This document shows positions 2,292 through 50,463 of a DNA stretch of 62,869 nt, piece after piece (position 1 is the first letter of the stretch; every line of letters begins with the position of its first letter). Where the stretch lies: NCBI GenBank assembly GCA_964523295.1, contig CAZGAH010000004.1, forward strand, positions 49,680 through 112,548. Direction: 5' to 3'. Both the position numbers and the translations under genes were made by a program. Source of the DNA: an uncultured Desulfovibrionaceae bacterium (GTDB lineage Bacteria; Desulfobacterota; Desulfovibrionia; Desulfovibrionales; Desulfovibrionaceae). The notes under the pieces are model-generated. The model was not told the DNA's origin. It was given only the letters and a program-made list of their open reading frames with translations, and ran no database searches.

Positions 2292-2317
2292 GGCAAGCCG
2301 GATTGCCTGTTTTTTTT
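2292..2317 (+). terminator. terminator-like short hairpin plus T8 run just upstream of the kinase start codon
   Basis: GGCAA-GCCGGA-TTGCC followed by TG and TTTTTTTT (2310-2317), about 35 nt before the ATG at 2352. The stem is only 5 bp, so this is weak. Confidence 0.3.
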
Positions 2318-2351: not shown

Positions 2352-5090
2352 ATGAGTCTGCGCTCCAGACTATCCCGCTTTCAACTCAAAACCAAGCTCC
2401 TGGTCCTGGAGGCCGCGGTTTTGTTGGCCTTCGGGGTTGTGACCCTGGCAATCTTCTTTTCCATGCACCAGGTCAACGCGCTGTTCTCCAACGTCATCGA
2501 AAGCGATGTCAGCCGCATTGTCGCCAATGGCGAACTGAGCCGGGATGTCGCCGCCGTATCGGCCGGCATCCGTCTCATAGCCGCCTCGTTTTACGGCAAC
2601 GACGTGCTGTTAAACAGCAAGTCCAACGAACTCGCCGTCTCCGGGGACAGGATTCTCGCCGATGTCGCAGGCACGGACCTGGCTCCGCCGATCAACCTCT
2701 GGCGTCATCTCCAGGTCGACTTCATCACCCAGTGCCAGGCCGTCAACGGCGTCGTTCGCGCCCGGCAGTCCACATGGAAGGCAATCGAGGAGCAACTGCG
2801 TCAGTTGGAGCAGGACCCGGTCGCGGGGGCTTCCGATCGCAGCCGCGGCGCACAGCGGGAGGAGTTATACCAGACAACGCGCGCAATTCGAGACCTGTTG
2901 CTGGAGGCAAAAGCGCGGTTTATCGAACAGAGCAGTCGGGCTGGCCAGTTCATGCAGCAGGGCTATTCGACCGAAGCCAGCCAGGAGGCCTGCCAGGAGC
3001 TGCTTCGCCGGATAGCGGCGTTGCCTCCAGGAGACGGTGAAACCGGGGCACGGCTTGCGACGATATCCTCGCTGGTAGGGGACTGCGTCCGCCTGACCGA
3101 CAATTACGGCCAGGCCATGCAATCCCTCATCCGACGATTCCGGGAAATGCAAAGCTCGGAAACCGACGCGACCGAGGCCATCGACCGCCTGGATCGCGAG
3201 CTCATTTCCCGGACCTCGCAGACGCGCGAGGCCATCGGCTCCACGATCCGGACCATTGGCCTGGCCTTCTTTTTCCTGTGCGCAGCGATAGTGACCGGCT
3301 TGCTCGGGCTGATCACCTATTTCGTGAATTCCAACGTGATGCATCCGCTTGGGCACGTCATCGACCGCTTCAGGGCCTTTGGCGAGGGCGACCGCAGCAT
3401 GCGCATCGATCTTAAACGGTCCGACGACTGGGCGCCAATCGAGCGCACGCTCAACAACGTGGCCCAGACGCTGAGCGATCAGGACTGGCTGAAAACCGGT
3501 CAGGCCGGGCTCGACGAGGCGCTACGCGGTGAACTGAGCGTCACGGACGTGGCCTCACGTAGCCTGACCTGGCTGGCCAGGCATCTGGACGCCCGACTGG
3601 GCGCCATCTACCTGGCCGACGAGAGCAATTCGTTGCAACTGAGCAGCGGGTACGCCCTTTCCAATCCGGACAAGCAGCACCACAGCATCCCCCTGGGAGA
3701 AGGCGTGATCGGCCAGGCGGCCCGGAACGGCACGCCGATACGCTTTCAAGGGGTGAACGGCGAAGTTCCGGACCTCGACTTCGGCCCCGGTCGATTGACA
3801 CCGGAGTTCTTCGTCGCCCTGCCTCTGGAAGATACCGGCCAGACGCTGGGCGTGCTGCTGCTCGGCTCCACCAGACCATTTACCGACCTGACGCTTCAGT
3901 TGCTTGAGCGCTGCCGCAACAGCCTTGTAGTCAGCCTGCTCACAGCGCGCTCGCATGAGCGCATCCAGGCCTTGCTGCTGGAGAGTCAGAACCAGGCCGA
4001 GATGTTGCAGCAGCAACAGGAGGAGCTGCGCCAGACCAACGACGAACTGGCCGAACAGGCCAAGGCCCTGCGCGAGTCCGAAGAAACGCTGCAGGCGCAG
4101 CAGGAAGAACTGCGGGTGACGAATGAAGAACTGGCCGAGCAGACGAGGGCCTTGCGCGAGTCTGAACGGCAGTTGCAGGATCAACAGGAAGAACTGCGCG
4201 CCTCAAATGCCGAACTGGCCTCGCTCAATGCCCGATTGGAAGAAATCGTCGACGAGCGGACCCGGGATCTGGCCCGCAAGGCCCAGGAGCTGGAGCTGGC
4301 GAATCAGCGTCTGCTGGAGCTGGACCAGCTCAAGTCGTCGTTCCTTTCGTCCGTATCCCACGAGTTGCGCACCCCGCTGACCTCTGTTCTGGGCTTTACC
4401 AAGCTCATCCACAAGGATCTGGCCCGCTCGTTCTGGCGTCTGGCCCAGGGTGACGAGCAGCTGGTGAAAAAAAGCGAACGCATCCAGGACAATCTGGGCA
4501 TCATCACCCACGAGGCGGAGCGCTTGTCGCGACTCATCAACGACGTGCTCGATCTGAACAAGATCGAATCCGGCCGCATGGCCTGGCATGACCGTACCGT
4601 CATTCCGGAAGAGATCATCGCCCGCACCCTGCAAAGCCAGCGCGGGCATCTGGCAGGCAAGAAACAGCTCAAGCTGCTCACCGAAGTCGCCGTGGAGCTT
4701 CCCGTTTTATTTGTCGATCCCGATCGTCTCGAACAGGTGCTCATCAACCTGCTTTCCAATGCCATCAAATTTACCGATCGAGGGCACATTCTGGTCCGGG
4801 CCTTCCCCACGGACGAGGGCTGGCTGCATGTCGAGGTGCAGGATACCGGCCCGGGCATCCCCGCCGACGAACTGTCCAAAATTTTCGACAAATTCCACCA
4901 GGCACGCGCCCGGGACACCCTGGTGGAAAAGCCGGCCGGAACGGGTCTTGGTCTGACTATCTGCCGTGAAATCGTCGAACATTACCATGGTCGTATCTGG
5001 GTGGAAAGCCAGGTCGACGTCGGCAGCAGCTTTTTCCTGGAACTCCCGGCGGCATCCCGCCTCGATAACGCCAAGGCCTCGACGGAATGA
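2352..5090 (+). CDS. membrane sensor histidine kinase (two TM helices, HAMP, GAF, coiled coil, HisKA, HATPase; no receiver)
   Basis: The internal ATG at 2352 of track ORF 2178..5090 gives MSLRSRLSRFQLKTKLLVLEAAVLLAFGVV (TM1). TM2 is IGLAFFFLCAAIVTGLLGLITYF. Then come a DWLKTG-GAF segment, a 3 x 28-aa coiled coil, the H-box SSVSHELRTPLTSV, and N/G boxes NLLSNAIKFT, DTGPGI and GTGLGL. Confidence 0.9.
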   Translation: MSLRSRLSRFQLKTKLLVLEAAVLLAFGVVTLAIFFSMHQVNALFSNVIESDVSRIVANGELSRDVAAVSAGIRLIAASFYGNDVLLNSKSNELAVSGDRILADVAGTDLAPPINLWRHLQVDFITQCQAVNGVVRARQSTWKAIEEQLRQLEQDPVAGASDRSRGAQREELYQTTRAIRDLLLEAKARFIEQSSRAGQFMQQGYSTEASQEACQELLRRIAALPPGDGETGARLATISSLVGDCVRLTDNYGQAMQSLIRRFREMQSSETDATEAIDRLDRELISRTSQTREAIGSTIRTIGLAFFFLCAAIVTGLLGLITYFVNSNVMHPLGHVIDRFRAFGEGDRSMRIDLKRSDDWAPIERTLNNVAQTLSDQDWLKTGQAGLDEALRGELSVTDVASRSLTWLARHLDARLGAIYLADESNSLQLSSGYALSNPDKQHHSIPLGEGVIGQAARNGTPIRFQGVNGEVPDLDFGPGRLTPEFFVALPLEDTGQTLGVLLLGSTRPFTDLTLQLLERCRNSLVVSLLTARSHERIQALLLESQNQAEMLQQQQEELRQTNDELAEQAKALRESEETLQAQQEELRVTNEELAEQTRALRESERQLQDQQEELRASNAELASLNARLEEIVDERTRDLARKAQELELANQRLLELDQLKSSFLSSVSHELRTPLTSVLGFTKLIHKDLARSFWRLAQGDEQLVKKSERIQDNLGIITHEAERLSRLINDVLDLNKIESGRMAWHDRTVIPEEIIARTLQSQRGHLAGKKQLKLLTEVAVELPVLFVDPDRLEQVLINLLSNAIKFTDRGHILVRAFPTDEGWLHVEVQDTGPGIPADELSKIFDKFHQARARDTLVEKPAGTGLGLTICREIVEHYHGRIWVESQVDVGSSFFLELPAASRLDNAKASTE
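4008..4259 (+). repeat. in-frame tandem repeat, 3 x 84 bp (3 x 28 aa = 4 heptads each), encoding an E/Q-rich coiled coil
   Basis: The units start at 4008, 4092 and 4176. They encode QQQQEELRQTNDELAEQAKALRESEETL, QAQQEELRVTNEELAEQTRALRESERQL and QDQQEELRASNAELASLNARLEEIVDER. A single related unit (QTQQEELRVTNEELAERS) occurs in the next kinase at 7120-7170. Confidence 0.85.
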
Positions 5091-5100
5091 GGATTCCACG

Positions 5101-8100
5101 ATGAAACGCCGTCTACAGATAGGCATGAAAGGCAAGTTGTTAATGACTTTTTTGGCCGCAAGCATTTTTTCTTTCGGTCTTGCGGGGTGGTGGGGCAACC
5201 GCCTGGCCGAGTCCGTGCTTGTCGACGAGACCTTCAACCAGCTCGAAAGCGTACGGCAGGGAAAGAAAAATGCGCTGGAGACCCTGTTCAGGACCATGGG
5301 CAACCAACTGCATACCCTGGCCGAGGACCGGATGACCATAGCGGCCCTGTCCGAGTTCAGTGCCCAGTATCAGACCCTGCTGGCGCAATCGGGCGTCAGC
5401 GACGCCAGGCTGGTACGTATGCGGCAGGCCCTGCGCTCGTTCTATGCCGTGGATTTCGCCAATGAGTACCGCCGCCGCAACGACAACCGGGCTCCGGACG
5501 TGCTTCCGTATTTCACGAGCCTTTCCCCGGGCGCTATTGCCTTGCAATATCTCTACATCGCCGACAATCCCAACCCTCCGGGCGACAAGGCCCTGCAGGA
5601 CCGCGCCGCGGATACGGCCGGATACCACGACGTCCACGCGCGCTATCATCCCCTGTTTCATGATTATCTGACCCGTTTCGGCTATGAGGACATCCTGCTG
5701 GTGGATGGCAATACCGACGCGGTTGTCTATTCCGTGGCCAAGCATATCGATTTCGCCGCATCACTTGCCGACGGACTGCTGGCGACCAGCGGACTGGGGG
5801 CTGCCTGCCGCCAGGCGAAACAAAGCGGCGGGCCTGTAGTCTCCTTCGTCGATTTCGGACTCTATGAGCCGGATTTCGGCGCTCCGATCTGCTTTCTGGC
5901 CATTCCGGTCGACGCTGGCGACCGCAAGGCCGGCGTTCTGGTCTTTGCCGTATCCGGCGCCTCGATCAACACGCTGCTGCAGGAGAACTCCGGTCTGGGG
6001 CAGTCCGGCGAAACCTATCTGGTCAATCCGGACCGACTGCTGCGCTCGGACACCCGGCTCGATCCCCGTACGTACGGCCTCGTCGAGTCCCTGCGCAATC
6101 CCGGCAAGGCGCTCATCAGCAGCGAAACCGCCGCACTGGCGCTGCAAGGAAAAAGCGGACAGAAGACCGTCGTCAATTATCGCGGAGCGACGGTGCTGTC
6201 TTCGTACGCGCCGGTCCAGGTTTTCGACCGGGTCTGGGCTCTGCTGGTGGAGACCGACCTGAGCGAGGCCCTGCAGCCGGTGCAGCGCATGAACACCTCC
6301 ATGTATATGGTGGGGGTGATCATCCTCGCAGTCATGACTCTGCTGGCCCTGTTCGCCGCCAGGCGCTTCTCCGCCCCGCTGGTCAAAGGCTGCGCCTTTG
6401 CCGAGGCCATTACCGGCGGCAATTACAATGCCACCCTGCGACTGCCCGGACGCGACGAAGCCGGAGCCCTGGCCCGGGCGCTCAACCAGATGGCCCGGAG
6501 CCTGAGTGAGCAGGATTGGCTGAAAACCGGAAAGTCCGAATTGAACGACCAGTTGCGCGGAGAGCTTGGAATCGAGGAACTCGGCAGGCGCTGCATCAGT
6601 TACCTCGTCCAGCATCTGGACGCCCAGTTGGGGGCATTTTATCTGCTTCAGGGGAAATATCTCGTTCTGACGGCAAGCTACGCCTTCTGCGACCGTCGCG
6701 GCAACCTCAGCCGCATTGCCATTGGCGAGGGGCTTGTCGGTCAGGCCGCCCTGGAACAGGAGCTTATCGTCTTTCATCGCCCCGCCCACAGCACGCCCGC
6801 GTTGCATTATGGCATCGATCAGACCGTGCCCGATTATTTCCTCTGCGCGCCGATCGTATTCGAGCGCTCCTTGCTCGGCATCCTGCAAATCGGCTCCTCC
6901 AGGGAGTTCACCCCGCTGATGCGCCAGCTCATCACTGAAAATATCGAAAACATAGCTATCAGTCTGCATTCCGCTCAGACCAGGTCGGAAGTGCAGGAAC
7001 TGCTCAGATTTTCCCAGGAACAAGCCGACGTGCTCGAGGCGCAACACGCCCAGCTCAAGTCCGCCAACAGCGAACTCCAGGCCCAGACCGAGGCCTTGCG
7101 CGCCTCCGAGGAGTCGTTGCAGACTCAACAGGAAGAACTCCGCGTCACGAACGAGGAGCTGGCCGAGCGCTCGCATGCCCTGGAGGAACAGCGCAACGCC
7201 ATACGCAACAAGAACGTCCAGCTGAAAAAGGCGCACAACGAAATCCGGCGCAAGGCGCAGGAACTCGAGCTGGCCAGCAAGTACAAGTCTGAATTCCTGG
7301 CCAACATGTCGCACGAGCTGAGAACGCCACTCAACAGCATCCTTATCCTGGCCCAGCTGCTCAAGGAAAACAGGGAAAACAATCTCACGGACAAGCAGCT
7401 CGAGTTCGCCAACACCATATATACCTCGGGTGCCGGCCTGCTTGCGCTCATCAACGAAGTCCTGGACCTCTCCAAGGTCGAAGCCGGAAAGATGGAGCTG
7501 GAAATCCGGGACCTCGAACTGAGCGACCTGGCGGAAGGCCTGATCCGCACCTTCGCCCCCATTGCCGCAAGCAAGGGGCTTCAGCTGGATGTGGAGGTCG
7601 ACCCGACGCTACCGCCGAGCATCCACACCGACAGCCGGCGAGTTCTGCAAATCATCCACAATCTGCTGACCAATGCCTTCAAATTCACCGAGCGCGGCGG
7701 CGTACTCGTGAGCATCCAGTCTCCCGCGGAGGATATGGACCTGCCCCGCTGCGGCCTGACGCCTGCGCAGGCCGTGGCCATTGCCGTCACGGACACCGGT
7801 ATCGGCGTCGCGGAAGACAAGCAAGCGCTCATCTTCGAGGCCTTTCAGCAGGCCGACGGCACGACAAACCGCAAATACGGCGGAACAGGGCTCGGGCTGG
7901 CCATTTCCCGCGAGTTCGCCATCCTGCTGGGGGGAGAGATTCAGCTCATCAGCGCGCCGGACGAAGGCAGCACCTTTACCTTGGTGTTACCGCTGGTATT
8001 CACGCCGCAGGCCGACAGCGACACCTCGCGCACCACCTACCGCGAGGTCGAGACCTTCGACGACCCGGCGACAGCCTGCCAGCCCAGGCCCGACTACCCC

Positions 8101-9303
8101 ACCGATGATCGCGATCACCTGAAAACAGGCGACAAGACGCTGCTCATCATCGAGGATGATCCGAATTTTTCGCGGATACTCTGTAACATCGGCCAGGAAA
8201 AGGGTTTCAAGTGCATCATCTCCCCGGACGGCGAAAAGGGCCTGGACCTGGCGGGCAACCTTACTCCCAGCGCCATCGTCCTGGACATCGGCCTGCCCGG
8301 CATGGACGGCATGAAGGTGATGGATCAGCTCAAGAATTCACCCAAAACCCGACATATCCCCGTCCACGTCATCTCCGCCTTCGACGAATCCCTGGACGCC
8401 ATGCGCATGGGCGCCATCGGTTACCTGACCAAGCCGGTCAGCATGGAGCAGCTCGACCAGGTCTTCGACCGCATCGACGATCTCATCTCCAGGCCGGTAA
8501 AAAAGCTCCTGGTCGTCGAAGACAATCCGAGCCAACGGCAGGCCATCATCGAGCTTATCGGGAACAACGACGTTCAGAGCCGGGCCGTGGGCAGGGGAGA
8601 CGAGGCATGGGCCTTGCTGCAACACGAGCAGTTCGACTGCATCATCCTCGATCTCGGACTGGCGGACATGCCCGGCATCGAGCTGCTCGAGCGCATCGAC
8701 GCCAATCCAAAACTTGCGCGTATCCCGATCATCATCTACACTGGTCGGGACATTACGCCCAAAGAAGAGGCCAGGCTGGCCAGGCTGTCCGACAGCATCA
8801 TCATCAAGGGTGTGCGTTCGCCGGAGCGGCTGCTCGATGAAACAGCGCTCTTTCTTCACCGCGTGCAGGCCAATCTGCCGCAGGAAAAGCAGCGCATGCT
8901 CAAGAAGGTCCACGACCGCCAGTCCATCCTGGAAGACAAAAAAATACTCGTCATCGACGACGACCGCCGCAACATCTACGCCATTTCCGCCGTGCTTGAG
9001 AGTCACGGCATGAAGGTGTTCAGCGGCGATACCGGCAGGGAGTGTCTGGCGATGCTGGAAAAACATGGCGATGTCGATCTCGTGCTCATGGATATTATGA
9101 TGCCCGAAATGGACGGTTACGAAGCCATACGCACCATCCGCCAGGACCCGCGGTTCAAGGCCCTGCCCATCATTGCGCTCACCGCCAAGGCAATGCTCGG
9201 CGATCGCGGCAAATGCATCGAGGCCGGCGCCAACGACTATCTGGCCAAGCCCGTCGACACCGACAAACTGCTCTCGCTGTTGCGGGTGTGGCTCTATACA
9301 TGA
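5101..9303 (+). CDS. hybrid sensor histidine kinase (Cache-like periplasmic domain, HAMP, GAF, coiled coil, HisKA, HATPase, three receiver domains)
   Basis: The ATG at 5101 lies 10 nt after the upstream stop. The N-terminal TM is MKGKLLMTFLAASIFSFGLAGWW. The DWLKTG-GAF block is paralogous to the upstream kinase. The H-box is NMSHELRTPLNSI, and HATPase boxes are NLLTNAFKFT, DTGIGV and GTGLGL. The three REC domains begin LLIIEDDP, LLVVEDNP and ILVIDDD. Confidence 0.9.
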   Translation: MKRRLQIGMKGKLLMTFLAASIFSFGLAGWWGNRLAESVLVDETFNQLESVRQGKKNALETLFRTMGNQLHTLAEDRMTIAALSEFSAQYQTLLAQSGVSDARLVRMRQALRSFYAVDFANEYRRRNDNRAPDVLPYFTSLSPGAIALQYLYIADNPNPPGDKALQDRAADTAGYHDVHARYHPLFHDYLTRFGYEDILLVDGNTDAVVYSVAKHIDFAASLADGLLATSGLGAACRQAKQSGGPVVSFVDFGLYEPDFGAPICFLAIPVDAGDRKAGVLVFAVSGASINTLLQENSGLGQSGETYLVNPDRLLRSDTRLDPRTYGLVESLRNPGKALISSETAALALQGKSGQKTVVNYRGATVLSSYAPVQVFDRVWALLVETDLSEALQPVQRMNTSMYMVGVIILAVMTLLALFAARRFSAPLVKGCAFAEAITGGNYNATLRLPGRDEAGALARALNQMARSLSEQDWLKTGKSELNDQLRGELGIEELGRRCISYLVQHLDAQLGAFYLLQGKYLVLTASYAFCDRRGNLSRIAIGEGLVGQAALEQELIVFHRPAHSTPALHYGIDQTVPDYFLCAPIVFERSLLGILQIGSSREFTPLMRQLITENIENIAISLHSAQTRSEVQELLRFSQEQADVLEAQHAQLKSANSELQAQTEALRASEESLQTQQEELRVTNEELAERSHALEEQRNAIRNKNVQLKKAHNEIRRKAQELELASKYKSEFLANMSHELRTPLNSILILAQLLKENRENNLTDKQLEFANTIYTSGAGLLALINEVLDLSKVEAGKMELEIRDLELSDLAEGLIRTFAPIAASKGLQLDVEVDPTLPPSIHTDSRRVLQIIHNLLTNAFKFTERGGVLVSIQSPAEDMDLPRCGLTPAQAVAIAVTDTGIGVAEDKQALIFEAFQQADGTTNRKYGGTGLGLAISREFAILLGGEIQLISAPDEGSTFTLVLPLVFTPQADSDTSRTTYREVETFDDPATACQPRPDYPTDDRDHLKTGDKTLLIIEDDPNFSRILCNIGQEKGFKCIISPDGEKGLDLAGNLTPSAIVLDIGLPGMDGMKVMDQLKNSPKTRHIPVHVISAFDESLDAMRMGAIGYLTKPVSMEQLDQVFDRIDDLISRPVKKLLVVEDNPSQRQAIIELIGNNDVQSRAVGRGDEAWALLQHEQFDCIILDLGLADMPGIELLERIDANPKLARIPIIIYTGRDITPKEEARLARLSDSIIIKGVRSPERLLDETALFLHRVQANLPQEKQRMLKKVHDRQSILEDKKILVIDDDRRNIYAISAVLESHGMKVFSGDTGRECLAMLEKHGDVDLVLMDIMMPEMDGYEAIRTIRQDPRFKALPIIALTAKAMLGDRGKCIEAGANDYLAKPVDTDKLLSLLRVWLYT

Positions 9304-10151
9304 CCAGCCACGACGGTGGAACGCTCCATCTTGACGTCGAAAACATTGAGATCGAACTGATCCTCGAGGCCATTCGACTGCGCTACGGCCACGATTTCAG
9401 AAACTACTCCCGTGCGCACGTCAAGCGACGTATTCTTCATCGTCAGAGCCTTTCCGGCCTGGATCGGCTCTGCGACCTGCAATACGGCATCCTGCATGAC
9501 CGGGCCATGTTCGAGGCCCTGCTGCTCGATCTCTCCATCAACGTCACCGAGATGTTCAGGGATCCCTCCTTCTATCTGGCCCTGCGCAACGAGGTCATGC
9601 CCCTGCTGCGCACCTATCCCTTCATCAAGGTCTGGCACGCCGGCTGTTCCTCCGGGGAAGAAGTCTATTCCATGGCCATCGTGCTCAAAGAAGAGGACAT
9701 GTATGACCACGCGCAGGTCTATGCCACGGATTTCAATCAGATGATCCTGCAGCGGGCCAAAGAGGCGACCTATCCCATCAATCTGATCAAGGAGTACACC
9801 GCCAACTACCAGAAAGCCGGCGGGCAGGCCTCGTTCGCCGATTATTACATCGCCAAGTACGAAACCGTGATCATCGAGCAGTCGTTGAAGCGACGTATCG
9901 TCTTCGCCGACCACAATCTCGTTACCGACGGGGTATTCGGCGAGATGAACATGATCATCTGCCGTAACGTGCTCATCTACTTCAACCGCGAACTCCAGGA
10001 CCGGGTCATCAAACTTTTTCTCGACAGCCTCTGCCCCGGCGGCTTCCTCTGCCTGGGGTCCAAAGAATCCTTGAAATTCTCCAAGTACGCGGAAGCATTC
10101 GAGCCTGTGGTCGAAAAAGAAAAAATGTATAAAAAGCGTCTGGGGATCTGA
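9300..10151 (+). CDS. cheR: CheR-type protein-glutamate O-methyltransferase
   Basis: The ATG at 9300 overlaps the kinase stop (ATGA at 9300-9303). Motifs present are MFRDPSFY, the SAM-binding KVWHAGCSSGEEVYSMAI, and IICRNVLIYF. The longer track ORF from 9042 is an out-of-frame overlap with the kinase. Confidence 0.9.
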   Translation: MTSHDGGTLHLDVENIEIELILEAIRLRYGHDFRNYSRAHVKRRILHRQSLSGLDRLCDLQYGILHDRAMFEALLLDLSINVTEMFRDPSFYLALRNEVMPLLRTYPFIKVWHAGCSSGEEVYSMAIVLKEEDMYDHAQVYATDFNQMILQRAKEATYPINLIKEYTANYQKAGGQASFADYYIAKYETVIIEQSLKRRIVFADHNLVTDGVFGEMNMIICRNVLIYFNRELQDRVIKLFLDSLCPGGFLCLGSKESLKFSKYAEAFEPVVEKEKMYKKRLGI

Positions 10152-10181
10152 GGCTCCCGGACAAAACGGACTGTTATCGGC

Positions 10182-10820
10182 ATGAGTGATATCTCTTGCA
10201 CCAGCGACCTTCGCTACGATGCGGTGGTTATCGGCGTCTCCGCGGGCGGATTAAAGGCCTTGCGGACTATTTTACCGGCATTGAGTCCGTATTTTCCCGT
10301 CCCTGTTCTCGTTGTCCAGCATCTCAGCCCGCAGGCCGACGACTTTCTTGCCCGTTTTCTCAATGAGATCAGCCAGGTCAAGGTCAAGGAAGCCGATGAA
10401 AAAGAACCCTTGCTGCCCGGCACGGTCTACCTTGCGCCGCCCAACTACCATCTGCTTGTGGAGACCGACAAAACCCTGTCCCTGTCCGTGGAGGGGCGCG
10501 TTAATTACGCCCGGCCTTCGATTGATGTGCTCTTTCTGACCGCCTCCGAGGCCTTCGGGGCGAGGCTCATCGGTCTGGTGCTGACCGGCGCGAACGACGA
10601 CGGCAGCCGCGGACTCAAGCGCATCAAACAGCGTGGCGGCCTGGCGCTGGTCCAGGACCCGGCAACGGCCGACGCGGACCACATGCCCCGCGCAGCCATT
10701 ACCGCGGCCAACCCGGATGCCATCATCCCCTTGCAGGAGATTGCTGCCTTTCTGGAGTGCGCTGTCTACGGCATCGAGCACTGTCCGGGAAAGCAGCAAA
10801 GCCCGCCCGACCCCGCCTGA
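10182..10820 (+). CDS. cheB: CheB-type protein-glutamate methylesterase, catalytic domain only (no receiver domain)
   Basis: The contexts of the CheB Ser-His-Asp triad are present: GVSAGGLKAL, VVQHLSP and LTGANDDGSRG. The protein is only 212 aa and starts directly with the esterase fold. Confidence 0.85.
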   Translation: MSDISCTSDLRYDAVVIGVSAGGLKALRTILPALSPYFPVPVLVVQHLSPQADDFLARFLNEISQVKVKEADEKEPLLPGTVYLAPPNYHLLVETDKTLSLSVEGRVNYARPSIDVLFLTASEAFGARLIGLVLTGANDDGSRGLKRIKQRGGLALVQDPATADADHMPRAAITAANPDAIIPLQEIAAFLECAVYGIEHCPGKQQSPPDPA

Positions 10821-10838
10821 CGCCACCGACGCCCGGCC

Positions 10839-12149
10839 TTATCTGATGGGCAGCAAGATGAAAAAGGTGGTCCCTTTTCCCGGCTCGCTCTGCGCCCAGA
10901 GACGGCCTCCGTGGTGTTGCACGATGTGGTTGCTGATGGGAACGCCCAGGCCCGTCCCCTGCGGTTTGTCGGTCAGACCGTCCCCGGTCTGGCGAAAGAT
11001 GGCGAATACGCTCTCGTATTCACTGGCGGAAAAGCCGCGACCGGTATCCTGCACGGTGATGAGCACGGCGTGCCCACGGTTGACGGCACGACAGGCAATA
11101 TGCCCGTGATCGGTAAACTTGACGGCGTTGGCGAGGAGACTGCCAATGGCCTGAACCAGTCTGATCCGGTCTCCGGTGATGATCGGCAAATCGGGAGCAA
11201 TCTCCAGCTTGAATTCAAGCCCTTTCTCCTCGATGGCCCGGGCATGGGCCGTAACGGCTTGCCTGATCACCTCGGCCAGGTCCACCCGCCCTTTGCTCCA
11301 TTGGACCTCGCCGGTCTCCATCTGCGTGATATCAAGCACGTCACGAATCCTGGTCGTCAAACGCCTGGCCTCGGCGATGATGATGTCGATATTCTGATCC
11401 ACGCGCTGCATGGCCTTGCGCGTGGCGGTGGCATTCGGATCTACCGTCGCGTCGTCACAGAAATGGGGATACAGGGACTCGTGCAGGACATGTCGGATAC
11501 GCGAGGCAAACCCCAGCACCGAGGTCAACGGGCTGAGAAGCTCGTGAGAGACATTGGAGAGAAAGGCGGTTTTCATATCGTCGAGCGCCTTAAGCTCCGC
11601 ATAGGCCTTTTCCAGCTCCGCAGTGCGCTCCTGGACACGCTTCTCCAGATGCAGGTTCAAATCTTCCAACTGCTTATACGCCTCGGCCAGGCTGCCCGTC
11701 AGCTCGAGCAGTCCGCGTTCATTGAGAATGCGGTTGTTCATCTCCTGCCTGAAGAGCAGAACGGACTTGACCCTGGCCAGCAGTTCGATCTTACGCACCG
11801 GCTTGCCGATGTAATCCAGCGCGCCGGCAGCAAAGGCGTTCTGAAGACTCTCTTCGTCGTCGCTGCCGGTGACCATGACGACGGGAACGTCCTCGATCGT
11901 CGGGTCGGCCTTGATCAGGCGCAGAGTCTCAATGCCGCTCAACCCGGGCATGTTGATGTCCATGAGCACCAGATCCACCGCCTCGCCAGGCACCTGAGAC
12001 CGCTGCCGCAGCAGCTCCAGGGCCTGCTCGCCCGAAGACGCCGTGACCAGACTCGGGTACCCGGCCTTCAACAGTATCGTCTTCAGCAGCAGCAGAGAAG
12101 AATCGGAGTCGTCGACGATGAGCAGGGTCGTATCGGTCGCGTTGCTCAT
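10839..12149 (-). CDS. response-regulator receiver fused to a histidine kinase (REC-coiled coil-HisKA-HATPase)
   Basis: N-terminal REC (LLIVDDSDSSLLLL, VLMDINMPGLSG, GKPV), H-box NVSHELLSPLTSV, and HATPase boxes (LLANAVKFT, DTGRGF, GTGLGV). It is convergent with cheB, with 18 nt between the stops. Confidence 0.9.
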   Translation of the reverse strand: MSNATDTTLLIVDDSDSSLLLLKTILLKAGYPSLVTASSGEQALELLRQRSQVPGEAVDLVLMDINMPGLSGIETLRLIKADPTIEDVPVVMVTGSDDEESLQNAFAAGALDYIGKPVRKIELLARVKSVLLFRQEMNNRILNERGLLELTGSLAEAYKQLEDLNLHLEKRVQERTAELEKAYAELKALDDMKTAFLSNVSHELLSPLTSVLGFASRIRHVLHESLYPHFCDDATVDPNATATRKAMQRVDQNIDIIIAEARRLTTRIRDVLDITQMETGEVQWSKGRVDLAEVIRQAVTAHARAIEEKGLEFKLEIAPDLPIITGDRIRLVQAIGSLLANAVKFTDHGHIACRAVNRGHAVLITVQDTGRGFSASEYESVFAIFRQTGDGLTDKPQGTGLGVPISNHIVQHHGGRLWAQSEPGKGTTFFILLPIR

Positions 12150-17673: not shown

Positions 17674-18813
17674 TCAGCTGAACTGCGCAACGGGCAGACG
17701 CACGGTGATCGTTGTTCCGGTCGCTTCCGTTGTTGTCATGGCAATGCTGCCGCCCTGCGTCTCGGCAATGAGCCGGGCCGAGTAGGTGCCGAGTCCGGTG
17801 CCGCGATCCTTGCCCGACGTGGCGTATTTTTCGAAAAAACGCTCCCGGATGGCCTCCGGGACGACGCCGAGATTGTGTATGGCAATGGCGGCCGCGTCGT
17901 CGTACGCGCAGGCGACAGTCACCACGCTGTGCTCCGGCGCTGCCTCGAGGGCATTCTTGATGAGATTGGCAAACATGGAATGACAGAGCAGGGCCTCCGC
18001 CTGAACCACGAATGTATCCGCCTCGCCCGCGTCGCGACCGTCCAGGGAGAGTCTCAGTTCGATGTGCCGCAATTCCAGCACCATCGAAAATTCCTTCCGT
18101 ATCTTGCGCACTATCCTGAGCACATCGACAGACGCCGATCGGCAGACATAGCTGCCGGTCTCCATTTTATACATATCCAGGGCCAGATTGACCATGTCCA
18201 GCATCCGGTAACCCTGCTCCTCGATGAGCTGCAGAATACTGCGATCCTCTTCGTCCAGAATCGTATCGAGCTTGTCCATGAGCAGCTGCGGCAGGTTGAT
18301 TATCGCCGTGATGGGTGATTTGAGGTCGTGTCGGGTAATGCGCTCGACATCCTCGCGCAGCCGCGCGTTTTCCTGAAGAATGTCATTCTGGCGTCGCAGA
18401 TCGCGCCGCGCCTGAAACAAGGCCAGGTGATTGGCGACACGGGCCTTGACAATCGCCGGACTGAAGGGCTTGGGAACATAATCCGCCGCCCCGAGGGCCA
18501 GTCCCTTGACTTCAGCGCCCTCGTCCCCCAGCGCCGTGATGAATATCACGGGAATGTCCTTCAGGCCTTCATCTGCCTTGATCCGGCGACAGACTTCATA
18601 CCCGTCGAGCCCGGGCATCATGATGTCGAGCAATATGAGATCGGGCGGTTCCGCGGCGATGAATCGCAACGCGCGCTCCCCGTCCAGGGCCACGCGCACG
18701 TCGTATTCCGGGTCCAGCAGATTCACCAGCACGTCGATGTTGGCCTTCGTGTCTTCCACGATCAGTATGGTAAAACGCGGCTCGTCAACCATCAGGAAAT
18801 CCTCGATTCGCAA
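17674..18813 (-). CDS. receiver domain fused to a histidine kinase-like core (REC-DHp-HATPase)
   Basis: REC (ILIVEDTKANIDVL, LLDIMMPGLDGY, PKPF), a DHp-like segment ITRHDLKSPITAI, and an ATPase end (GTGLGTYSARLIAE). An alternative start MVDEPRF at 18792 overlaps the upstream stop by 1 nt. The ATG at 18813 would overlap it by 22 nt. Confidence 0.85.
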   Translation of the reverse strand: MRIEDFLMVDEPRFTILIVEDTKANIDVLVNLLDPEYDVRVALDGERALRFIAAEPPDLILLDIMMPGLDGYEVCRRIKADEGLKDIPVIFITALGDEGAEVKGLALGAADYVPKPFSPAIVKARVANHLALFQARRDLRRQNDILQENARLREDVERITRHDLKSPITAIINLPQLLMDKLDTILDEEDRSILQLIEEQGYRMLDMVNLALDMYKMETGSYVCRSASVDVLRIVRKIRKEFSMVLELRHIELRLSLDGRDAGEADTFVVQAEALLCHSMFANLIKNALEAAPEHSVVTVACAYDDAAAIAIHNLGVVPEAIRERFFEKYATSGKDRGTGLGTYSARLIAETQGGSIAMTTTEATGTTITVRLPVAQFS

Positions 18814-21800
18814 CGTTGGATCAGGTCGCGGGTCAAAGGCTCGGCCTCGTCGAAACGATACTCGGCCACAAGCCGCCCCAGCGCCATGATATCGGTATTG
18901 AGGAACAAAGGCCAGTCCCGCGTACGCAGCTGCTCCCAGGCCTTGTTCGCCTTGCCGGCCCGGTGTTTGCTCAAATGCTCCAACAGTTTGCGCAGCCCGG
19001 CCGCCAGCTCTTCCAAGGACCCTTCCTGCACGGGCTGGCTCTGGGGGAGAAGCGGCGGGAGCGTAGCCAGGGCATCCAGCAAGGCATTCAGCGCCTCGAG
19101 GAATTCAGCCAGCTCCGGCGCGCCCGAGGCCTGTTCCTCGCCGGCAAGGAGGGCCTCCAACCCGGCAGCGGCCGTCGCGAGCCGGCCGGCGCCGATCGTT
19201 CCGGCCACGCTCTTCATGGAGTGGACCAGACGCCGGGCAAGCGCACGGTCGCCGGCTTCCAGCGCCTCCGTCACCAACGTGGCGTCGTTGCCATGGTCCT
19301 GCCGAAAATCATGCAGCAACTTCCGGTACAGGTCCAGGTTCCCGCCGACGCGCTCCAATCCGACAGCAGTATCCACGCCGGCCACATCAGGGAGGGACGA
19401 CGCTGCCGACTCGTCGACCGCCAACAGTGGCATCTCCGTGCGCGGTTCAGGGCGTTGGCCCGGGGGAATCCATTCCAGCAGGACGCGGAACAACTCGCCC
19501 GGATCGACGGGCTTGGTCACATGGGCGACCATGCCTTCGTGCAGCGACCTGTCCCGGTCGCCGGCCATGGCGTGCGCGGTCATGGCAATGATCGGCGTAG
19601 CAATGCCGCGCTCCCGAATCCGCCGCGTCGTCTCGTAGCCGTCCATATCGGGCATCTGAATGTCCATGAGCACGACGTCATATTCGCCGTTGCAGGCCAT
19701 TTCCACGCCGTGGCTGCCGTCCGGAGCCGTATCGACGACCAGTCCGGCACGCTGCAACAGCTCGGTGGCGACCTGACGGTTGATGGCGTTATCCTCGACA
19801 ACGAGCACGCGCGCGCCCCGAATGCGCTGCAGGGACTCCCGGCGGCCGGTAAAGGCCGACATCGAGCGCGTGCGCCGGGCAATCTCCTTGCCGAAGGCCT
19901 CCATGATGCTGTCGAAGAGCAGCGACCGGTTGGCCGGTTTGAGCACGAAGCCGGTAACGCCGACTGCCCGGGCACGCGCGGCGATGTCCTCGCCGCCGAA
20001 AGCCCCGACCATGAGCAACCTGGGCAGGGAAGTGTACTCAAAGCGCGTCGCAATGCGCGCCAGGGTCTCGATGCCGTCCCAGCCGGGCATATGCTGATCC
20101 AGGATGAGCAGCCGGTAGGCGGTACCCGCCTGCTGCGCCCGGTCCAGCTCGGCCAGGGCCGCGACCCCGGAATCGGCCACGCCGACGCGGAACGAAAAAC
20201 TTTCCAGCGTCTCTTTCAAGATATCGAGGGCCGTAGGGTTGTCGTCCACGAGCAGCACTCTCAGACCACGCAGATCACCGGGAGGATGATAACAGCGGTC
20301 CTCCTCGCAGGGTTTGCTTCCGAGCTGCACGGTGAACGAAAAGACGCTGCCCTTCCCGGGGACGCTATGGGCCGCGAGCTTGCCGTGCATCATCTCCACA
20401 AGCCGTTTGCTGATGGCCAGTCCCAGGCCGGTGCCGCCGTAGCGGCGGGTGATGCTGCCATCCGCCTGCTGGAAGGGTTGAAAAAGCCGTTCCAGCGCTT
20501 CCGCATCCAGACCGATACCGGTATCCCGGATGGAAAACCCCAGTTCGACCTCGTCTCCCAGCTCCCGCACCAGCTGAGCGGACACGACCACCTCGCCCTG
20601 CTCGGTGAACTTGACCGCGTTTCCGGCCAGATTGACCAGGATCTGCGTAAGCCGGTGCGGATCGCCGACAAGCGCGTGCGGTACGTCCGGGGCCGTGCGA
20701 AAGAGGATTTCCAGATTCTTTTCCTCGGCCTTGAGGGCGATGATATTGGAGAGGTTGCCCAGCACGTCTTCCAATTGGAATTCCACATGCTCGATGTCCA
20801 GTTTTCCGGCCTCGATCTTGGCGAAATCGAGGATGTCGTTGACGATGCGCAACAGGGAATCCGCGGAAACCGATATCTTGCTCAAATAGTCGTGCTGCCG
20901 GGCGGTAAGCTCGGTCTCCAGGGCCAGCATGGTCATCCCCGTGATGGCATTGAGCGGCGTGCGTATCTCGTGACTCATGCGGGCCAGGAAATCGCTTTTC
21001 GCCCGGCTGGCCTCCTCGGCGGCGGCCCGGGCCTGCCGCATGGCCTCCTCGGCCTTTTTCCATTCGGTGATGTCGGTCAGGAAGGACACGTGTCCGATAA
21101 TCTCGCCCTTGTCGTCGCGCAAATGACTGCTGTTGACCAGCATGGGGATACGCCGGCCGTCCTTGGCCACGCACACGGACTCGAATGCCCCGCTTTCGTC
21201 GACGCCGGCCCGGCCCATGATGCAGGCCCGGGTTTCATCGCAGGCGAATTCCCTGGGATGGCGGTGCAGGAGTTCCTCGCGCGTATAGCCGAGCAGCCGG
21301 AGCATGGCGGCGTTGACTTCCTGAATCACGAAATCCGGGTCTGCGAAGAGAAATCCCTCGCTGGCGGTTTCGATGATCCGCCGGAACTTCGCCTCCCCGC
21401 GCTGGACCTCCTCCTCGGCGCGCTTGCGCTCGTCGATGTCCATGGACAATCCGAGCAAGGTTGTGGCGACGTCGGAGTCCTCCCGCCGCAGCACCTTGCC
21501 GTGCAGGGCGATCCAGACCCATTCCCCGGAGGCCGCGCGGACGCGCATCTCCGAATAGAAACGATCGGTCTCGCGCCGGAGATGCCGCCCCACGGCCTTT
21601 CTGGCCAGGGCATAATCGTCGGGGTGGCAGAACAAGGCCTCGTCGAGCACGCTCCGGGGCGTCTGTTCCGGCGGATACCCGAGTTTTTCGTAAAGGCGCA
21701 CTGGCGGCGTGACGTAGTCCCATGAGCGCGTATCGATTTCCCACATATCCGCACCGGCGACTTCCAGCGCCAGCTGCAACCGCTCCTCTGACAGCGTCAA

Positions 21801-23492
21801 TTCCTCGCGGGCGCGACGCTCGGCGGTGATATCAAAGGCAAACCCCTCGATGAGTTCTTCACCCGCGTCGTTCCGGGTTATTCTGGCATTGAGGAGCAAC
21901 CAGCGTGCCTCTCCGTCGGCACGCCGGATCCGCAACTCGTAATTGCTCAGGGCGCCCTGCTGCCGCAGCGCCTTCAGCCAGACGAAACGATCCTCGGCCT
22001 GGACGTACAGGGTCTGATCGAGCGCGTCTATGCCCAAGGCTTTCTCGGGCGAGTCGTAGCCCAGAATGCGCGCCCCGGCCGGGTTGATGGCCTCGAAACC
22101 GTGACCGACTCTGGCCTGGAATATCCCCAGCAAGGCGTTCTCGTACAAACGCTGAAAGCTCTTCTCGGCCTTGTGTAACTCCTGGGCCTGCTCGTCAATG
22201 AGCCGCTGAAGCTTTTTGCGTCCCTGGCGAAAAACGAAAAACAGGCAGACGACCAGTACGAGATAGATCATCCCGGCATGGACAAGATGCCCGCGCAGCG
22301 AGGAAACCAGCTCGTTGTATATTTCCGGAAACTCGGCCCAGACCAGAATGCTCGCCACCGGGCCACGCTCTTCGTGGCCCGCGGCGTCAGGCGCCGCGCC
22401 GTGCGCGGGGGTTATAAAAATGGGCAAAGGCTGGATGCCGTAAAGGCGATCCAGGCACATGGTCAGGCTGCCCCGGGCGCGATCGATGAACCGGAAGGTC
22501 TTTCGAGCCTTTTCGCGCTCGGCCTGCTCATCATGCATGGCCTTTGAGAAATCGAAGGGCCCGCGATCCTCCTCGGCGAACATGGTATGGAACTCGGACG
22601 TATCCGCCAGAGCGCGCAGCGGAGTGGAATCCCCGAGCACGACGAAATAGTCTTCGTTGCCGATGCGCAGTTCGGGTTTGCGGGCGACGAAATCATCGGA
22701 GGCGTGATCCCGGGCGTAATCCTTGCGTAACAACAGGGCCGATTCGCAGGAAAAAAAGAGATGTGTTGCCTGCTCGATGCGCTGAAAAACCGTGGACATG
22801 TCCACGCCAAGCTCGATCACGCCAATGACCCGCTCCTCGTCGGCGTCCATGACGTCGAACACGGGCACCACGCTGCGCAATCCCGAGTAGTCGGGCGCAA
22901 TGACAAAGCCGATCTGGGCCTCGCCGCTGCGAAAGGCATCCTGAATCAACAGGTCATTGTATCCGGAAGCAAAGGGCGGCGAGGTGGTGTCGGCGATGGC
23001 AAAGCCCGCCGGCCCGCCTTCAGGACGCGGCAAATCCAGACGAAGCCAGGGTGTCGGGTCTCCGGGCAGATAAACGGCAACATGCCGCCCCTCGTTGAGC
23101 ATGTTGGCCTTGAATCCCCGTCCTCCGGCCCACAGGGCCATGGCCAGCTCGCCGCGCAGCCGCCTCGACTCCCCGCGGGCTACGGGGGAATCGTCCCGGC
23201 TCATTCGGGCCGCCTCGATCAACAGATCGCCCACCTGCGGATTGGTGGCCATGACCTCGCCCCGCCGGGTAAGCTCGCTGCCCAGCCCTTCCACAGCCAG
23301 ATTGGCCCCGGCGCGCAGCCCACCGACCAGCTCCACCGTGCCGATAAACGCTCCGGTCATCGATCGGGCGATGTATTCGTGCAGCGCGAACCCGAAAACA
23401 ATGACGAAAACAACCAGAGAGACCAGGATGAACCAGCGCAAGGGAATCCGATATCCCGGACAATCGCGCTGTCGGCGACGAAACCAACGCAT
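18792..23492 (-). CDS. large hybrid sensor kinase (N-terminal TM-bounded sensor region, several PAS domains, HisKA, HATPase, two receivers, Hpt)
   Basis: Start chosen at MRWFRRRQ (ATG 23490-23492), preceded by GGAGGGGG. The H-box is RMSHEIRTPLNAI and HATPase boxes are NLAGNAVKFT, DTGIGL and GTGLGL. The REC domains begin VLLVDDNP and VLVVEDNA. The Hpt motif is HSMKSVAGTIGA. Confidence 0.9.
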   Translation of the reverse strand: MRWFRRRQRDCPGYRIPLRWFILVSLVVFVIVFGFALHEYIARSMTGAFIGTVELVGGLRAGANLAVEGLGSELTRRGEVMATNPQVGDLLIEAARMSRDDSPVARGESRRLRGELAMALWAGGRGFKANMLNEGRHVAVYLPGDPTPWLRLDLPRPEGGPAGFAIADTTSPPFASGYNDLLIQDAFRSGEAQIGFVIAPDYSGLRSVVPVFDVMDADEERVIGVIELGVDMSTVFQRIEQATHLFFSCESALLLRKDYARDHASDDFVARKPELRIGNEDYFVVLGDSTPLRALADTSEFHTMFAEEDRGPFDFSKAMHDEQAEREKARKTFRFIDRARGSLTMCLDRLYGIQPLPIFITPAHGAAPDAAGHEERGPVASILVWAEFPEIYNELVSSLRGHLVHAGMIYLVLVVCLFFVFRQGRKKLQRLIDEQAQELHKAEKSFQRLYENALLGIFQARVGHGFEAINPAGARILGYDSPEKALGIDALDQTLYVQAEDRFVWLKALRQQGALSNYELRIRRADGEARWLLLNARITRNDAGEELIEGFAFDITAERRAREELTLSEERLQLALEVAGADMWEIDTRSWDYVTPPVRLYEKLGYPPEQTPRSVLDEALFCHPDDYALARKAVGRHLRRETDRFYSEMRVRAASGEWVWIALHGKVLRREDSDVATTLLGLSMDIDERKRAEEEVQRGEAKFRRIIETASEGFLFADPDFVIQEVNAAMLRLLGYTREELLHRHPREFACDETRACIMGRAGVDESGAFESVCVAKDGRRIPMLVNSSHLRDDKGEIIGHVSFLTDITEWKKAEEAMRQARAAAEEASRAKSDFLARMSHEIRTPLNAITGMTMLALETELTARQHDYLSKISVSADSLLRIVNDILDFAKIEAGKLDIEHVEFQLEDVLGNLSNIIALKAEEKNLEILFRTAPDVPHALVGDPHRLTQILVNLAGNAVKFTEQGEVVVSAQLVRELGDEVELGFSIRDTGIGLDAEALERLFQPFQQADGSITRRYGGTGLGLAISKRLVEMMHGKLAAHSVPGKGSVFSFTVQLGSKPCEEDRCYHPPGDLRGLRVLLVDDNPTALDILKETLESFSFRVGVADSGVAALAELDRAQQAGTAYRLLILDQHMPGWDGIETLARIATRFEYTSLPRLLMVGAFGGEDIAARARAVGVTGFVLKPANRSLLFDSIMEAFGKEIARRTRSMSAFTGRRESLQRIRGARVLVVEDNAINRQVATELLQRAGLVVDTAPDGSHGVEMACNGEYDVVLMDIQMPDMDGYETTRRIRERGIATPIIAMTAHAMAGDRDRSLHEGMVAHVTKPVDPGELFRVLLEWIPPGQRPEPRTEMPLLAVDESAASSLPDVAGVDTAVGLERVGGNLDLYRKLLHDFRQDHGNDATLVTEALEAGDRALARRLVHSMKSVAGTIGAGRLATAAAGLEALLAGEEQASGAPELAEFLEALNALLDALATLPPLLPQSQPVQEGSLEELAAGLRKLLEHLSKHRAGKANKAWEQLRTRDWPLFLNTDIMALGRLVAEYRFDEAEPLTRDLIQRCESRIS

Positions 23493-23687
23493 GGCAACCC
23501 CCTCCATACTGGACGTGACGCGATGGGCACGGGGATTGTGCAGGGAATGGCGCCGTATGGCAATGGGGAAAAAACGGACTTCGGGGAGAGCGACGCAGGG
23601 CATCTTTTGCCAGCCCTGCTCAACGATGAAGCCGTACGACCGCTGCCAGCGTCGAGAAAACTTCCATGCGCCGGCTCGAATTAGGAT

Positions 23688-31168: not shown

Positions 31169-31747
31169 GCGAAGTTATTGTGCATTAGCGAAGTTTTGCC
31201 TTGAAACACTGTCTCATTGTTTCAGGGAACTGCATAAGAGCGTCTCAAGTAATTCAAAGTACAAATGATCTGGTCCTCCAAGGGTACGATTGATGCCGAG
31301 GCAATGAACGACGTCGTAGTATTCAGGAAGAGGAGGTGGCTTATACGCCGGCAGGGAGCTGAAAGCGCCATGCAGCGAAATCACATGACCGGAGTTCGCA
31401 TCCCAATCCGGTTTCTTTTCTATTTTCAGACCTGCCCTGAACTGATCCGCTTTGACCCGGTACTGATCTTTTCACGTAACCGACTTGAAATACCCATGCG
31501 TTTCGGGTAGAATTGATACCAATTGGCGAGCCGTTCCGGCTCGACCAGTGATGTCAACGTCCGACTTTCGTCATGGCTGGAGCGAGATGGACAGCCAAAC
31601 CTTCATTATTCAGGAGGTGCGTCGCGTTCGACTTCAGCGTACCGTGTTCGAACTCCATTCCGGCTATGACACGACGGCTGTATGACTATTTTTTTTCTAT
31701 TGTAGCATTTCGTTACAACCATGTTGACAAACCAAAGGGGGGAAAAC

Positions 31748-46721: not shown

Positions 46722-46777
46722 AGGATTGTGAAAGCGCCTGTTTCGTTTGCTGCGCAAGGCGGGCGTGCAGCGTTTCC

Positions 46778-50432: not shown

Positions 50433-50463
50433 TGGGAGATTCGAGCAAAGGAGGGGACATCCG

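Follow-up and report, generated by a model that had tools for sequence, protein, structure and literature searches.

A CheR/CheB pair encoded with GAF-domain histidine kinases in an uncultured Desulfovibrionaceae bacterium: a probable methyl-accepting two-component module

Covalent adaptation by methylation is the textbook mark that separates chemotaxis from ordinary two-component signalling. The subject of this paper is a cluster of five genes, specifying three histidine kinases (K1, K2 and K3) and one CheR/CheB pair, in a contig of an uncultured Desulfovibrionaceae bacterium (CAZGAH010000004.1). "The window" designates the entire 62.9 kb stretch of DNA that was analysed; the six-frame scans and the Pfam scans of open reading frames (ORFs) reported below cover that stretch. 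The closest described systems are RsbK/RsbM of Bacillus cereus and the cfcABCDE genes of Pseudomonas putida.

RsbK is a kinase of CHASE3-HAMP-GAF-S-helix-HK-REC architecture (S-helix, signalling helix; HK, histidine kinase; REC, receiver domain), and its receiver interacts with the kinase domain and with the S-helix, more strongly when RsbM is co-expressed (PMC4574943). As summarized in the same source, which cites Chen et al. 2012, RsbM is a CheR-type enzyme that methylates the RsbK signalling helix in vitro with labelled S-adenosylmethionine (SAM) and represses the pathway. (A preliminary description of the window locus had stated that no biochemical demonstration of the methylation target was known for neighbourhoods of this type; it had overlooked this one.) RsbM is described as an orphan methyltransferase, there being no paired esterase in B. 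cereus, and the Bacillus cereus group and Paenibacillus are described as sharing the layout RsbY/RsbK/RsbM/RsbV/RsbW/SigB (PMC4574943); the genomic association of RsbK with CheR is ascribed in PMC12848376 to de Been and colleagues. In P. putida, CfcA is a CHASE3/GAF hybrid kinase that is needed for the diguanylate cyclase activity of CfcR, and CfcD has a receiver; CfcA responds to salts, and its target CfcR (REC-PAS-GGDEF-EAL) is encoded elsewhere (PMC4951495, PMC6849547). The products of cfcB and cfcC are a CheR/CheB pair for which, according to a statement in PMC4951495, involvement in chemotaxis was excluded. Methylation of CfcA is not reported in the cfc literature surveyed (PMC4951495, PMC6849547).

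The window cassette is most likely a chemotaxis-independent methyl-accepting two-component module of the RsbK/RsbM and cfcABCDE kind: K2 very probably belongs to the RsbK/CfcA-type family, and K1 and K2 are probably the substrates of the adjoining CheR and CheB. K1 (positions 2352-5090, + strand; ATG 2352, TGA 5090; 912 amino acids, aa), whose start is called identically in an independent assembly, is separated by a spacer of 10 nucleotides (nt; 5091-5100) from K2 (5101-9303, +; ATG 5101, TGA 9303; 1400 aa). The ATG of cheR at 9300 overlaps the K2 stop codon as ATGA, an overlap that predicts translational coupling of cheR (9300-10151, +; 283 aa) to K2. A 30-nt spacer leads to cheB (10182-10820, +; 212 aa, receiver-less), and K3 (10839-12149, - strand), specifying a 436-aa REC-HisKA-HATPase protein, is convergent at a distance of 18 nt, in an orientation that is inverted relative to most other loci of the cassette. 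(This packing, down to each gap and overlap, had been given correctly in the preliminary description.) The locus is present in three independent metagenome assemblies, and its arrangement is not due to chance, since it recurs in 80 species.

The cheR product matches CheR_N and CheR in Pfam (E 1.7e-41), has B. subtilis CheR (5FTW, E 1.4e-29) as its best solved relative, and is, as judged by these matches, a SAM-dependent protein-glutamate O-methyltransferase. The cheB product matches CheB_methylest alone (E 5.5e-59), with 3SFT as its best solved relative. Its catalytic triad (Ser20/His47/Asp140) is kept, and is invariant across 28 homologues. Both enzymes align over their full length to solved CheR and CheB structures, and by these features both look active. 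A CheB-type esterase is normally fed back by CheA through its own receiver. Pfam finds no receiver domain in the 212-aa window protein, so that the CheA-to-CheB feedback loop is absent here. The top 120 CheB homologues, from many phyla, are likewise all single-domain proteins (185-230 aa).

K2 is, by its domain content, a canonical member of the family with a dCache sensor. Pfam identifies dCache_1, HAMP, GAF, HisKA, HATPase_c and three Response_reg stretches, in a layout of dCache_1, transmembrane (TM) segment, HAMP, GAF, methylation-type helix, HisKA (with the phospho-accepting His738), HATPase and three tandem receivers (8134-9282, +); the translation of each receiver has the acidic pocket, phospho-acceptor Asp, Thr/Ser and Lys. 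K1 is laid out as TM segment, helical sensor, TM segment, HAMP-like region, GAF, three methylation-type heptad motifs, ERT signalling helix, HisKA (His670) and HATPase. Pfam recognizes its GAF, HisKA and HATPase_c domains and no receiver; the helical sensor yields only a hint of 4HB_MCP_1 (E 0.049). The two kinases are paralogous, as had been proposed, with 35% identity over 606 aa from TM2 through HAMP, GAF and coiled coil to the end of the ATPase (E 2e-92). The earlier assignment of HAMP-GAF to both holds for K2 and for the GAF domain of K1, whereas the HAMP of K1 falls below the Pfam threshold (E 0.05, 14 bits), in a region that aligns to the K2 HAMP. K3 has Response_reg, HisKA and HATPase_c. 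With CheR, CheB_methylest, GAF, HisKA, HATPase_c and Response_reg all found, the Pfam check suggested in the preliminary description bears out its domain assignments in these respects.

K2 resembles RsbK in combining an extracytoplasmic sensor, HAMP, GAF, a helical linker, HisKA, HATPase and C-terminal receivers (K1 has no receivers), and the cassette resembles the rsb locus in placing a CheR-type gene immediately downstream of the kinase, here with the ATGA overlap. It differs in that RsbK has one receiver and a CHASE3 sensor whereas K2 has three receivers and dCache; in that a receiver-less CheB accompanies the window CheR whereas RsbM has no esterase; in having a second predicted methyl-accepting kinase, K1; and in its partner, which in B. 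cereus is a REC-PP2C phosphatase that feeds a partner-switching sigma cascade and in the window is the REC-kinase K3. No STAS, RsbW-like or sigma genes are found in the flanks of the window cassette. Because its partner is a REC-HisKA-HATPase protein and STAS, RsbW and sigma genes are missing, the window cassette is not a sigma-B module and shares only the sensing/methylation front end with one. The bridge between the two is provided by Paenibacillus kinases (P0208 and P0198), which are 54% identical to the K2 helix and its dimerization and histidine phosphotransfer (DHp) segment over 95-98% of the query, and which carry the QQEEL...NE.L motif and three receivers, as K2 does. Two Paenibacillus-type loci (L088, L090), both from the reverse look-ups reported below, run REC-PP2C (REC-SpoIIE), 4HB-HAMP-GAF-motif-kinase-REC3, CheR and REC-HK-REC, followed by genes for an RsbW-like (HATPase_c_2) and a sigma-70 family product, with a STAS gene between these last two in L088; they reproduce the layout from RsbY to SigB given above.

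The likeness to cfcABCDE is one of gene order (hybrid GAF kinase, CheR, CheB, REC protein, against K2-cheR-cheB-K3 with K3 inverted) and of signalling direction, in that CfcA signals to a receiver-containing enzyme (PMC4951495, PMC6849547). The sensors differ: CHASE3 in CfcA, dCache_1 in K2 and a helical sensor in K1. The published primer for H496 mutagenesis of CfcA encodes ANMS(H)EL, which matches the H-box of the family, FLANMSHELRTPLN. We infer orthology from the description of CfcA, the primer-encoded H-box being the only segment compared. With classical chemosensory systems the cassette shares the same two enzyme folds with catalytic residues intact, a predicted substrate consisting of heptad-spaced Glu/Gln pairs on a long coiled coil that governs a histidine kinase, and the use of one enzyme pair by two receptors, K1 and K2. 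It differs in having no CheA, CheW or MCP (methyl-accepting chemotaxis protein) signalling domain, in the fusion of the kinase in cis to its predicted methyl-accepting helix, and in the context of the candidate sites, which are without the small-residue flanks of the MCP consensus.

Conservation of the cassette was surveyed with a profile of 28 CheB homologues, which yielded 80 loci from the genomes of 80 species, their ORFs labelled with seeds derived from the window; 50 of these loci have at least 5 kb on both sides (the full-flank set). CheR is directly upstream of CheB in 77 of the 80, and most share the order K2-cheR-cheB-REC. A HisKA/HATPase kinase with three receivers (REC3) is found within 6 kb in 43/50 full-flank loci, almost all of them also with GAF, and a REC-first partner in 41/50; the CheR-linked set is complete, with all three, in 37/50. 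The hosts belong to more than 10 phyla: they include Bacteroidota (Flavobacterium among them), Desulfobacterota, Clostridium, Desulfosporosinus, three Leptospira species, Anaerolineae, Nitrospirae, Scalindua, Ignavibacteria, Bdellovibrionota, and alpha-, beta- and gamma-proteobacteria. The neighbourhood of receiver-less CheB genes is thus conserved, as the preliminary description had proposed should be checked; its mention of similar neighbourhoods in other proteobacteria was right as far as it went and too narrow. Sensors vary across the family (dCache, 4HB, CHASE3, HAMP arrays), and so does the REC-first partner (REC-HK(-REC), REC-GGDEF, REC-GGDEF-EAL, REC-PAS-GGDEF-EAL, REC-PP2C or REC alone). 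In the reverse direction, look-ups from the K2 helix/DHp segment place CheR directly after the kinase receivers in 6/6 loci, with CheB after CheR in two and CheR without CheB in four. The association of CheB with the cassette is strong and not absolute, since neither CheR nor a kinase lies within 10 kb of two close homologues (P0004 and P0010, 65-68% identical), which are thus orphans. In these closest named-genome relatives, the orphan CheB (10001-10639 of L004 and L005) lies between a SIR2-family gene and a subtilase gene.

Matches in the helix/DHp search are mainly short fragments and come from frameshifted long-read assemblies; they were used for locus look-ups and for the alignment underlying the structural model. 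Five of these loci (L088, L089, L090, L092 and L093) yield kinase-helix "proteins" of 150-300 aa from frameshift-riddled long-read contigs. Cassettes are thereby split into many small called genes, which would mislead automated counts of domain architecture. Some matches carry the precomputed accessions PF28019 and PF28159.

That CheR and CheB instead serve conventional chemoreceptors elsewhere, their adjacency to the kinases reflecting co-regulation, is improbable. Both are bona fide chemotaxis enzyme folds, and the window does contain one MCP (31721-33466), with textbook AAxxEExxST and TAxxQQxxTS sites; it is the only one, and is situated 20.9 kb from cheB, in agreement with the approximately 20 kb and the absence of cheA, cheW or MCP genes near the cassette noted previously. 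Pfam scans of the other large window ORFs disclose no CheA, CheW or second MCP, and no CheW is found in six frames of the window at E<=10, in a search of limited sensitivity made with a single seed sequence. The coverage is that of the window, so that a che cluster outside it is conceivable, as is service to the MCP within it. What argues against either is the synteny of the enzyme pair over more than 10 phyla with a GAF-HK-REC3 kinase and not with MCP, CheA or CheW. An MCP signalling domain occurs in 5/80 loci and is never adjacent; CheA, CheW and MCP are absent from the Pfam-annotated relative loci, forward and reverse, which is a better control than the CheW seed (the zero CheW matches in the 80 loci, obtained with a single E. 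coli sequence, are weak evidence). In addition, cheR appears to be translationally coupled to K2, a receiver-less CheB is unable to take CheA feedback, and the P. putida pair, which is of the orthologous type, is stated in PMC4951495 to have no chemotaxis role. The cassette is also present in Flavobacterium (L018, L021). These species are gliding bacteria and are not known to have flagellar chemotaxis.

A candidate for the methyl-accepting segment emerges from alignment of the 125 residues preceding the phospho-accepting His in 59 GAF-kinases. One to three copies of a motif, LQxQQEELRxTNEELEE[QR]T, are found there at a spacing of 28 residues. In the copy nearest the His, E1, E2, N7, E9 and L10 are present in 58/58 sequences, E8 in 57/58, and Q-1 and Q0 in 56/58. 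In 96/99 copies the distance from the start of the motif to the His is 5 mod 7; with these copies in one register, linkers differ only by whole heptads. Within the same loci, 56/57 GAF-kinases have the motif as against 0/43 REC-first kinases, and a six-frame scan of the window confines it to K1 (three copies) and K2 (one perfect copy). Pfam and NCBIfam have no model for it and give only spurious coiled-coil matches.

The methylation-type helix of K2 (7045-7170, +) contains a degenerate copy, AQHAQLKSANSELQAQ, followed by the perfect copy, LQTQQEELRVTNEELAER, at nt 7129. Its EE pairs, E678/E679 and E685/E686, are 60/59 and 53/52 residues before His738. An AlphaFold2 model of K2 residues 601-820 (34 homologues) has an uninterrupted 152-residue helix that continues into the His-bearing DHp helix, with a predicted local distance difference test (pLDDT) score of 90-98. 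When the motif is read in heptads, Leu occupies one core position and Gln0, Asn7 and Thr14 the other; since Leu and Gln/Asn/Thr fill the core, the EE pairs are exposed, at intervals of 7 residues. On this reading, the motif stretch is a weakly packed coiled coil on which acidic pairs recur regularly, much as they do on the helices that are methylated in chemoreceptors. Within QQEELRxTNEELEE, the second Glu of every EE pair is the candidate site, and its distance to the His is fixed; the residues so predicted are E679 and E686 in K2, and E558, E586, E593 and E614 in K1. In K1, the array QEELRQTNDEL, QEELRVTNEEL, QEELRASNAEL (4017-4217, +; residues 556-622, 28 apart) supplies further candidate methyl-accepting sites. 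These copies lie 114, 86 and 58 residues from the His, that is, at 2 mod 7, and are the sole three of the 99 that are out of register.

Two observations on the motif concern other loci of the survey. Some proteins are kinase-less and end ~15 residues after GAF plus one QQEEL..NEEL (L063, 6806-9172; L076, 6807-9158; L058, 11911-13350; L078, 11947-13341); they may serve on their own as methyl-accepting sensor modules, or be decoys. The kinases of L034 and L050 are apparently split at the motif helix.

The same signature appears where CheB and CheR are joined to a kinase on one polypeptide. In a 1218-aa CheB-CheR-PAS-kinase fusion of F. xanthum (L021), YEELQAANEEIVSSNEEFQTLNEELETSKEEIEATNEEL lies downstream of the CheR domain. 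Of 120 database relatives of this segment, many of them named "CheB/CheR fusion protein" at their source, 111 contain a run of three or more xEE[LI]xxx heptads. Fusion kinases have 5-7 xEE[L/I]xxx heptads (NEELQSANEEIVSSNEELQSLNEELETSKEEIE...), as in the K1/K2 motif; they differ from the window cassette in that enzymes and heptad array share a polypeptide, followed by PAS domains and kinase, with no GAF and no triple receiver. No experimental work on CheB-CheR fusion kinases was found in the literature.

Several considerations weigh against methylation of K1 and K2. The chemoreceptor methylation consensus is [ASTG][ASTG]xx[EQ][EQ]xx[ASTG][ASTG]; the kinase motif is without its small-residue flanks, whereas the distant MCP fits it. 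The sites of methylation in RsbK are reportedly E439 and E446 (attributed to Chen, 2012), and their correspondence to the EE pairs of K2 is putative. To our knowledge, there is no demonstration of CheB demethylating a histidine kinase, and none for any CheR+CheB cassette. The survey of fusion proteins shows conservation and not unbiased association, since its query contained the array (it is partly circular). Invariance of the motif could be due to constraints of signal transmission instead of modification. Finally, cfc mutants other than cfcA kept the crinkly phenotype (an unpublished statement in PMC4951495), so that methylation may be only modulatory.

A heptad helix dedicated purely to signal transmission, with CheR and CheB modifying another partner or with CheB confined to a single round of deamidation by which the QQ pairs mature, is a reading to be weighed, and an unlikely one. 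In its invariance the QQ pair equals the EE pairs (56/58), and reversibility is not universal, many relatives having CheR without CheB (4/6 reverse loci, and B. cereus with its orphan RsbM). Set against this are the invariance of the CheB catalytic triad, the pairing of CheB, when it is present, with CheR (77/80), and the recurrence of the same heptads in the proteins that fuse CheB and CheR.

Methylation of K1 and K2 also has to be weighed against methylation of the REC-kinase K3, or of another receiver protein, in their place. K3 was named as a possible substrate in the preliminary description, and a REC-first gene does adjoin CheB in 41/50 full-flank loci; we nevertheless consider this very improbable. 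K3 and its 43 counterparts are without the EE heptad motif, the output of the partner is interchangeable (HK, GGDEF, GGDEF-EAL, PP2C or none), which is how a response regulator and not a conserved enzyme substrate behaves, and the methylated protein of B. cereus is, in the summary of PMC4574943, the sensor kinase. K3 was rejected as substrate on the first two of these grounds. For the kinases themselves, which the same description had also named, speak the synteny of the cassette, the presence of the motif in 56/57 GAF-kinases, the heptads of the fusion proteins and the published systems (PMC4574943, PMC4951495).

The best full-length relatives of K3 elsewhere are REC-HK(-REC) genes that adjoin CheB. 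K3 can be thought of as acting like a response regulator, because its counterparts elsewhere have swappable outputs, and it is the probable phosphoryl acceptor of the cassette. No Hpt domain, cyclase or sigma module adjoins K2-cheR-cheB-K3. A region 5.5 kb downstream (17674-23603, - strand) specifies a 1603-aa PAS-PAS-HisKA-HATPase-REC-REC-Hpt hybrid kinase and then a 379-aa REC-HisKA-HATPase protein that resembles K3. This kinase pair might join the same relay, since it holds the only Hpt domain near the cassette.

K1 has the appearance of a lineage-specific chimera, in which a methylation module like that of K2 is joined to a kinase core like that of K3. Its residues 300-640 (HAMP-GAF-motif) match K2 only (36% identity, 201 bits), whereas for the kinase core (641-912) K3 is the better match (40.5%, 174 bits), ahead of K2 (36.5%, 124 bits). 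K1 would add a second receptor to one CheR/CheB pair, possibly with altered coupling.

The mechanism that we propose is as follows. K2 would sense through dCache, HAMP and GAF, and a single long coiled-coil helix with QQEELRxTNEELxE heptads would join GAF to His738. CheR would methylate exposed Glu residues of this helix with SAM as donor; the receiver-less CheB would strip the methyl groups and might deamidate the Gln-Gln pair. Neutralization of charge on a marginally stable coiled coil would shift helix packing and bias the adjoining DHp helix, whose state would set the balance between autokinase, phosphotransfer and phosphatase activities, as methylation of chemoreceptors does. Sensor input and methylation would be integrated as in chemoreceptors, with output passing from the K2 receivers to the REC-kinase K3. 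K1 would share the CheR/CheB pair, its HAMP-GAF-methylation module being set on the K3-like core with a phase shift of 3-4 residues, on account of which it may respond differently to methylation. The present analysis shows gene order, domains, conservation, and the motif with its helical context and register; for this locus, we infer which residues are modified, what CheB does, in which direction output is shifted and by what route phosphoryl groups pass.

K2 ends in a segment, RVWLYT (9283-9300, +), that conforms to a family-conserved ...LRVWL[YS]x terminus. Of 65 REC3 kinases, 39 have a strict W[LIFM][YF] tail, as against 3/88 other REC-ending ORFs; with the RVWLS variant included, by eye, the tail is present in ~55/65. 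In the REC3 kinases (of loci L006-L087) the tail, ...L[LM]RVWL[YS]x, ends 0-4 residues before the stop codon. It could be a docking site for CheR/CheB like the chemoreceptor pentapeptide, or merely the last helix of the third receiver. As a pentapeptide tether it was rejected, its W-x-Y spacing being unlike xWxxF, and it is retained only as speculation.

That speculation forms part of a wider one, which we think doubtful: that the cassette is a complete CheA-free adaptation (memory) circuit, made up of receiver gating, a tail tether and K1/K2 push-pull. A phosphorylated K2 receiver may gate the receiver-less CheB, or the access of CheR to the QQEEL/NEEL helix; the ...LRVWLY tail may tether the enzymes by analogy with the NWETF pentapeptide of chemoreceptors; and K1 and K2, of opposite helical phase and sharing one enzyme pair, may set two signals against each other in push-pull fashion. 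Delegation of the control of CheB to one of the three K2 receivers, as suggested in the preliminary description, is pure conjecture.

K1 is preceded by a 354-nt intergenic region. A terminator-like hairpin, GGCAAGCCGGATTGCC, followed by T8, is located there at 2292-2315 (+), 37-60 nt upstream of the K1 start; it corresponds to no Rfam family, and may be either an attenuator or fortuitous. Rfam and tRNA scans of the window give no matches, and a promoter/terminator scan, with 1 promoter-like site against 2.9 expected, is uninformative. Further from the cassette, a type I restriction-modification system (43147-53712, +) consists of HsdM (43147-45261), HsdS (46852-48003) and HsdR (50464-53712), interrupted by genes for a Schlafen/AlbA_2-HATPase_c_4-Fic-like_C protein (45258-46721) and an 810-aa AAA_13 ATPase (48000-50432). 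The fraction of G+C (GC) falls to 0.44-0.53 between 46 and 54 kb, and the region has the look of a defence island gained by horizontal transfer. Two short ORFs at the end of the window (61681-62775, -) have no Pfam match at E<=1e-4 and contain NWVLDADIRGFFDTIDH, which we take to be reminiscent of group II intron or retron reverse transcriptases, an unconfirmed resemblance.

The idea of a methylation-tuned kinase has precedents in Bacillus cereus and Pseudomonas putida, and its novelty was overstated when the locus was first described. What the analysis adds is a candidate motif of fixed register that recurs in CheB/CheR fusions, the range of phyla that have the cassette, a C-terminal tail conserved in the family, and the chimeric K1. 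The window's own addition is incremental, being a well-defined member of the family with an unusual, chimeric second receptor; the survey supplies a precise and testable target motif. The methylation half of the scheme is demonstrated in one Gram-positive species only, and the family has representatives in Leptospira, Clostridium, Bacteroidota and sulfate reducers. The analysis suggests that adaptation by methylation is built into a phylum-spanning family of kinases that control cyclic di-GMP (c-di-GMP) enzymes, sigma-factor cascades and further kinases.

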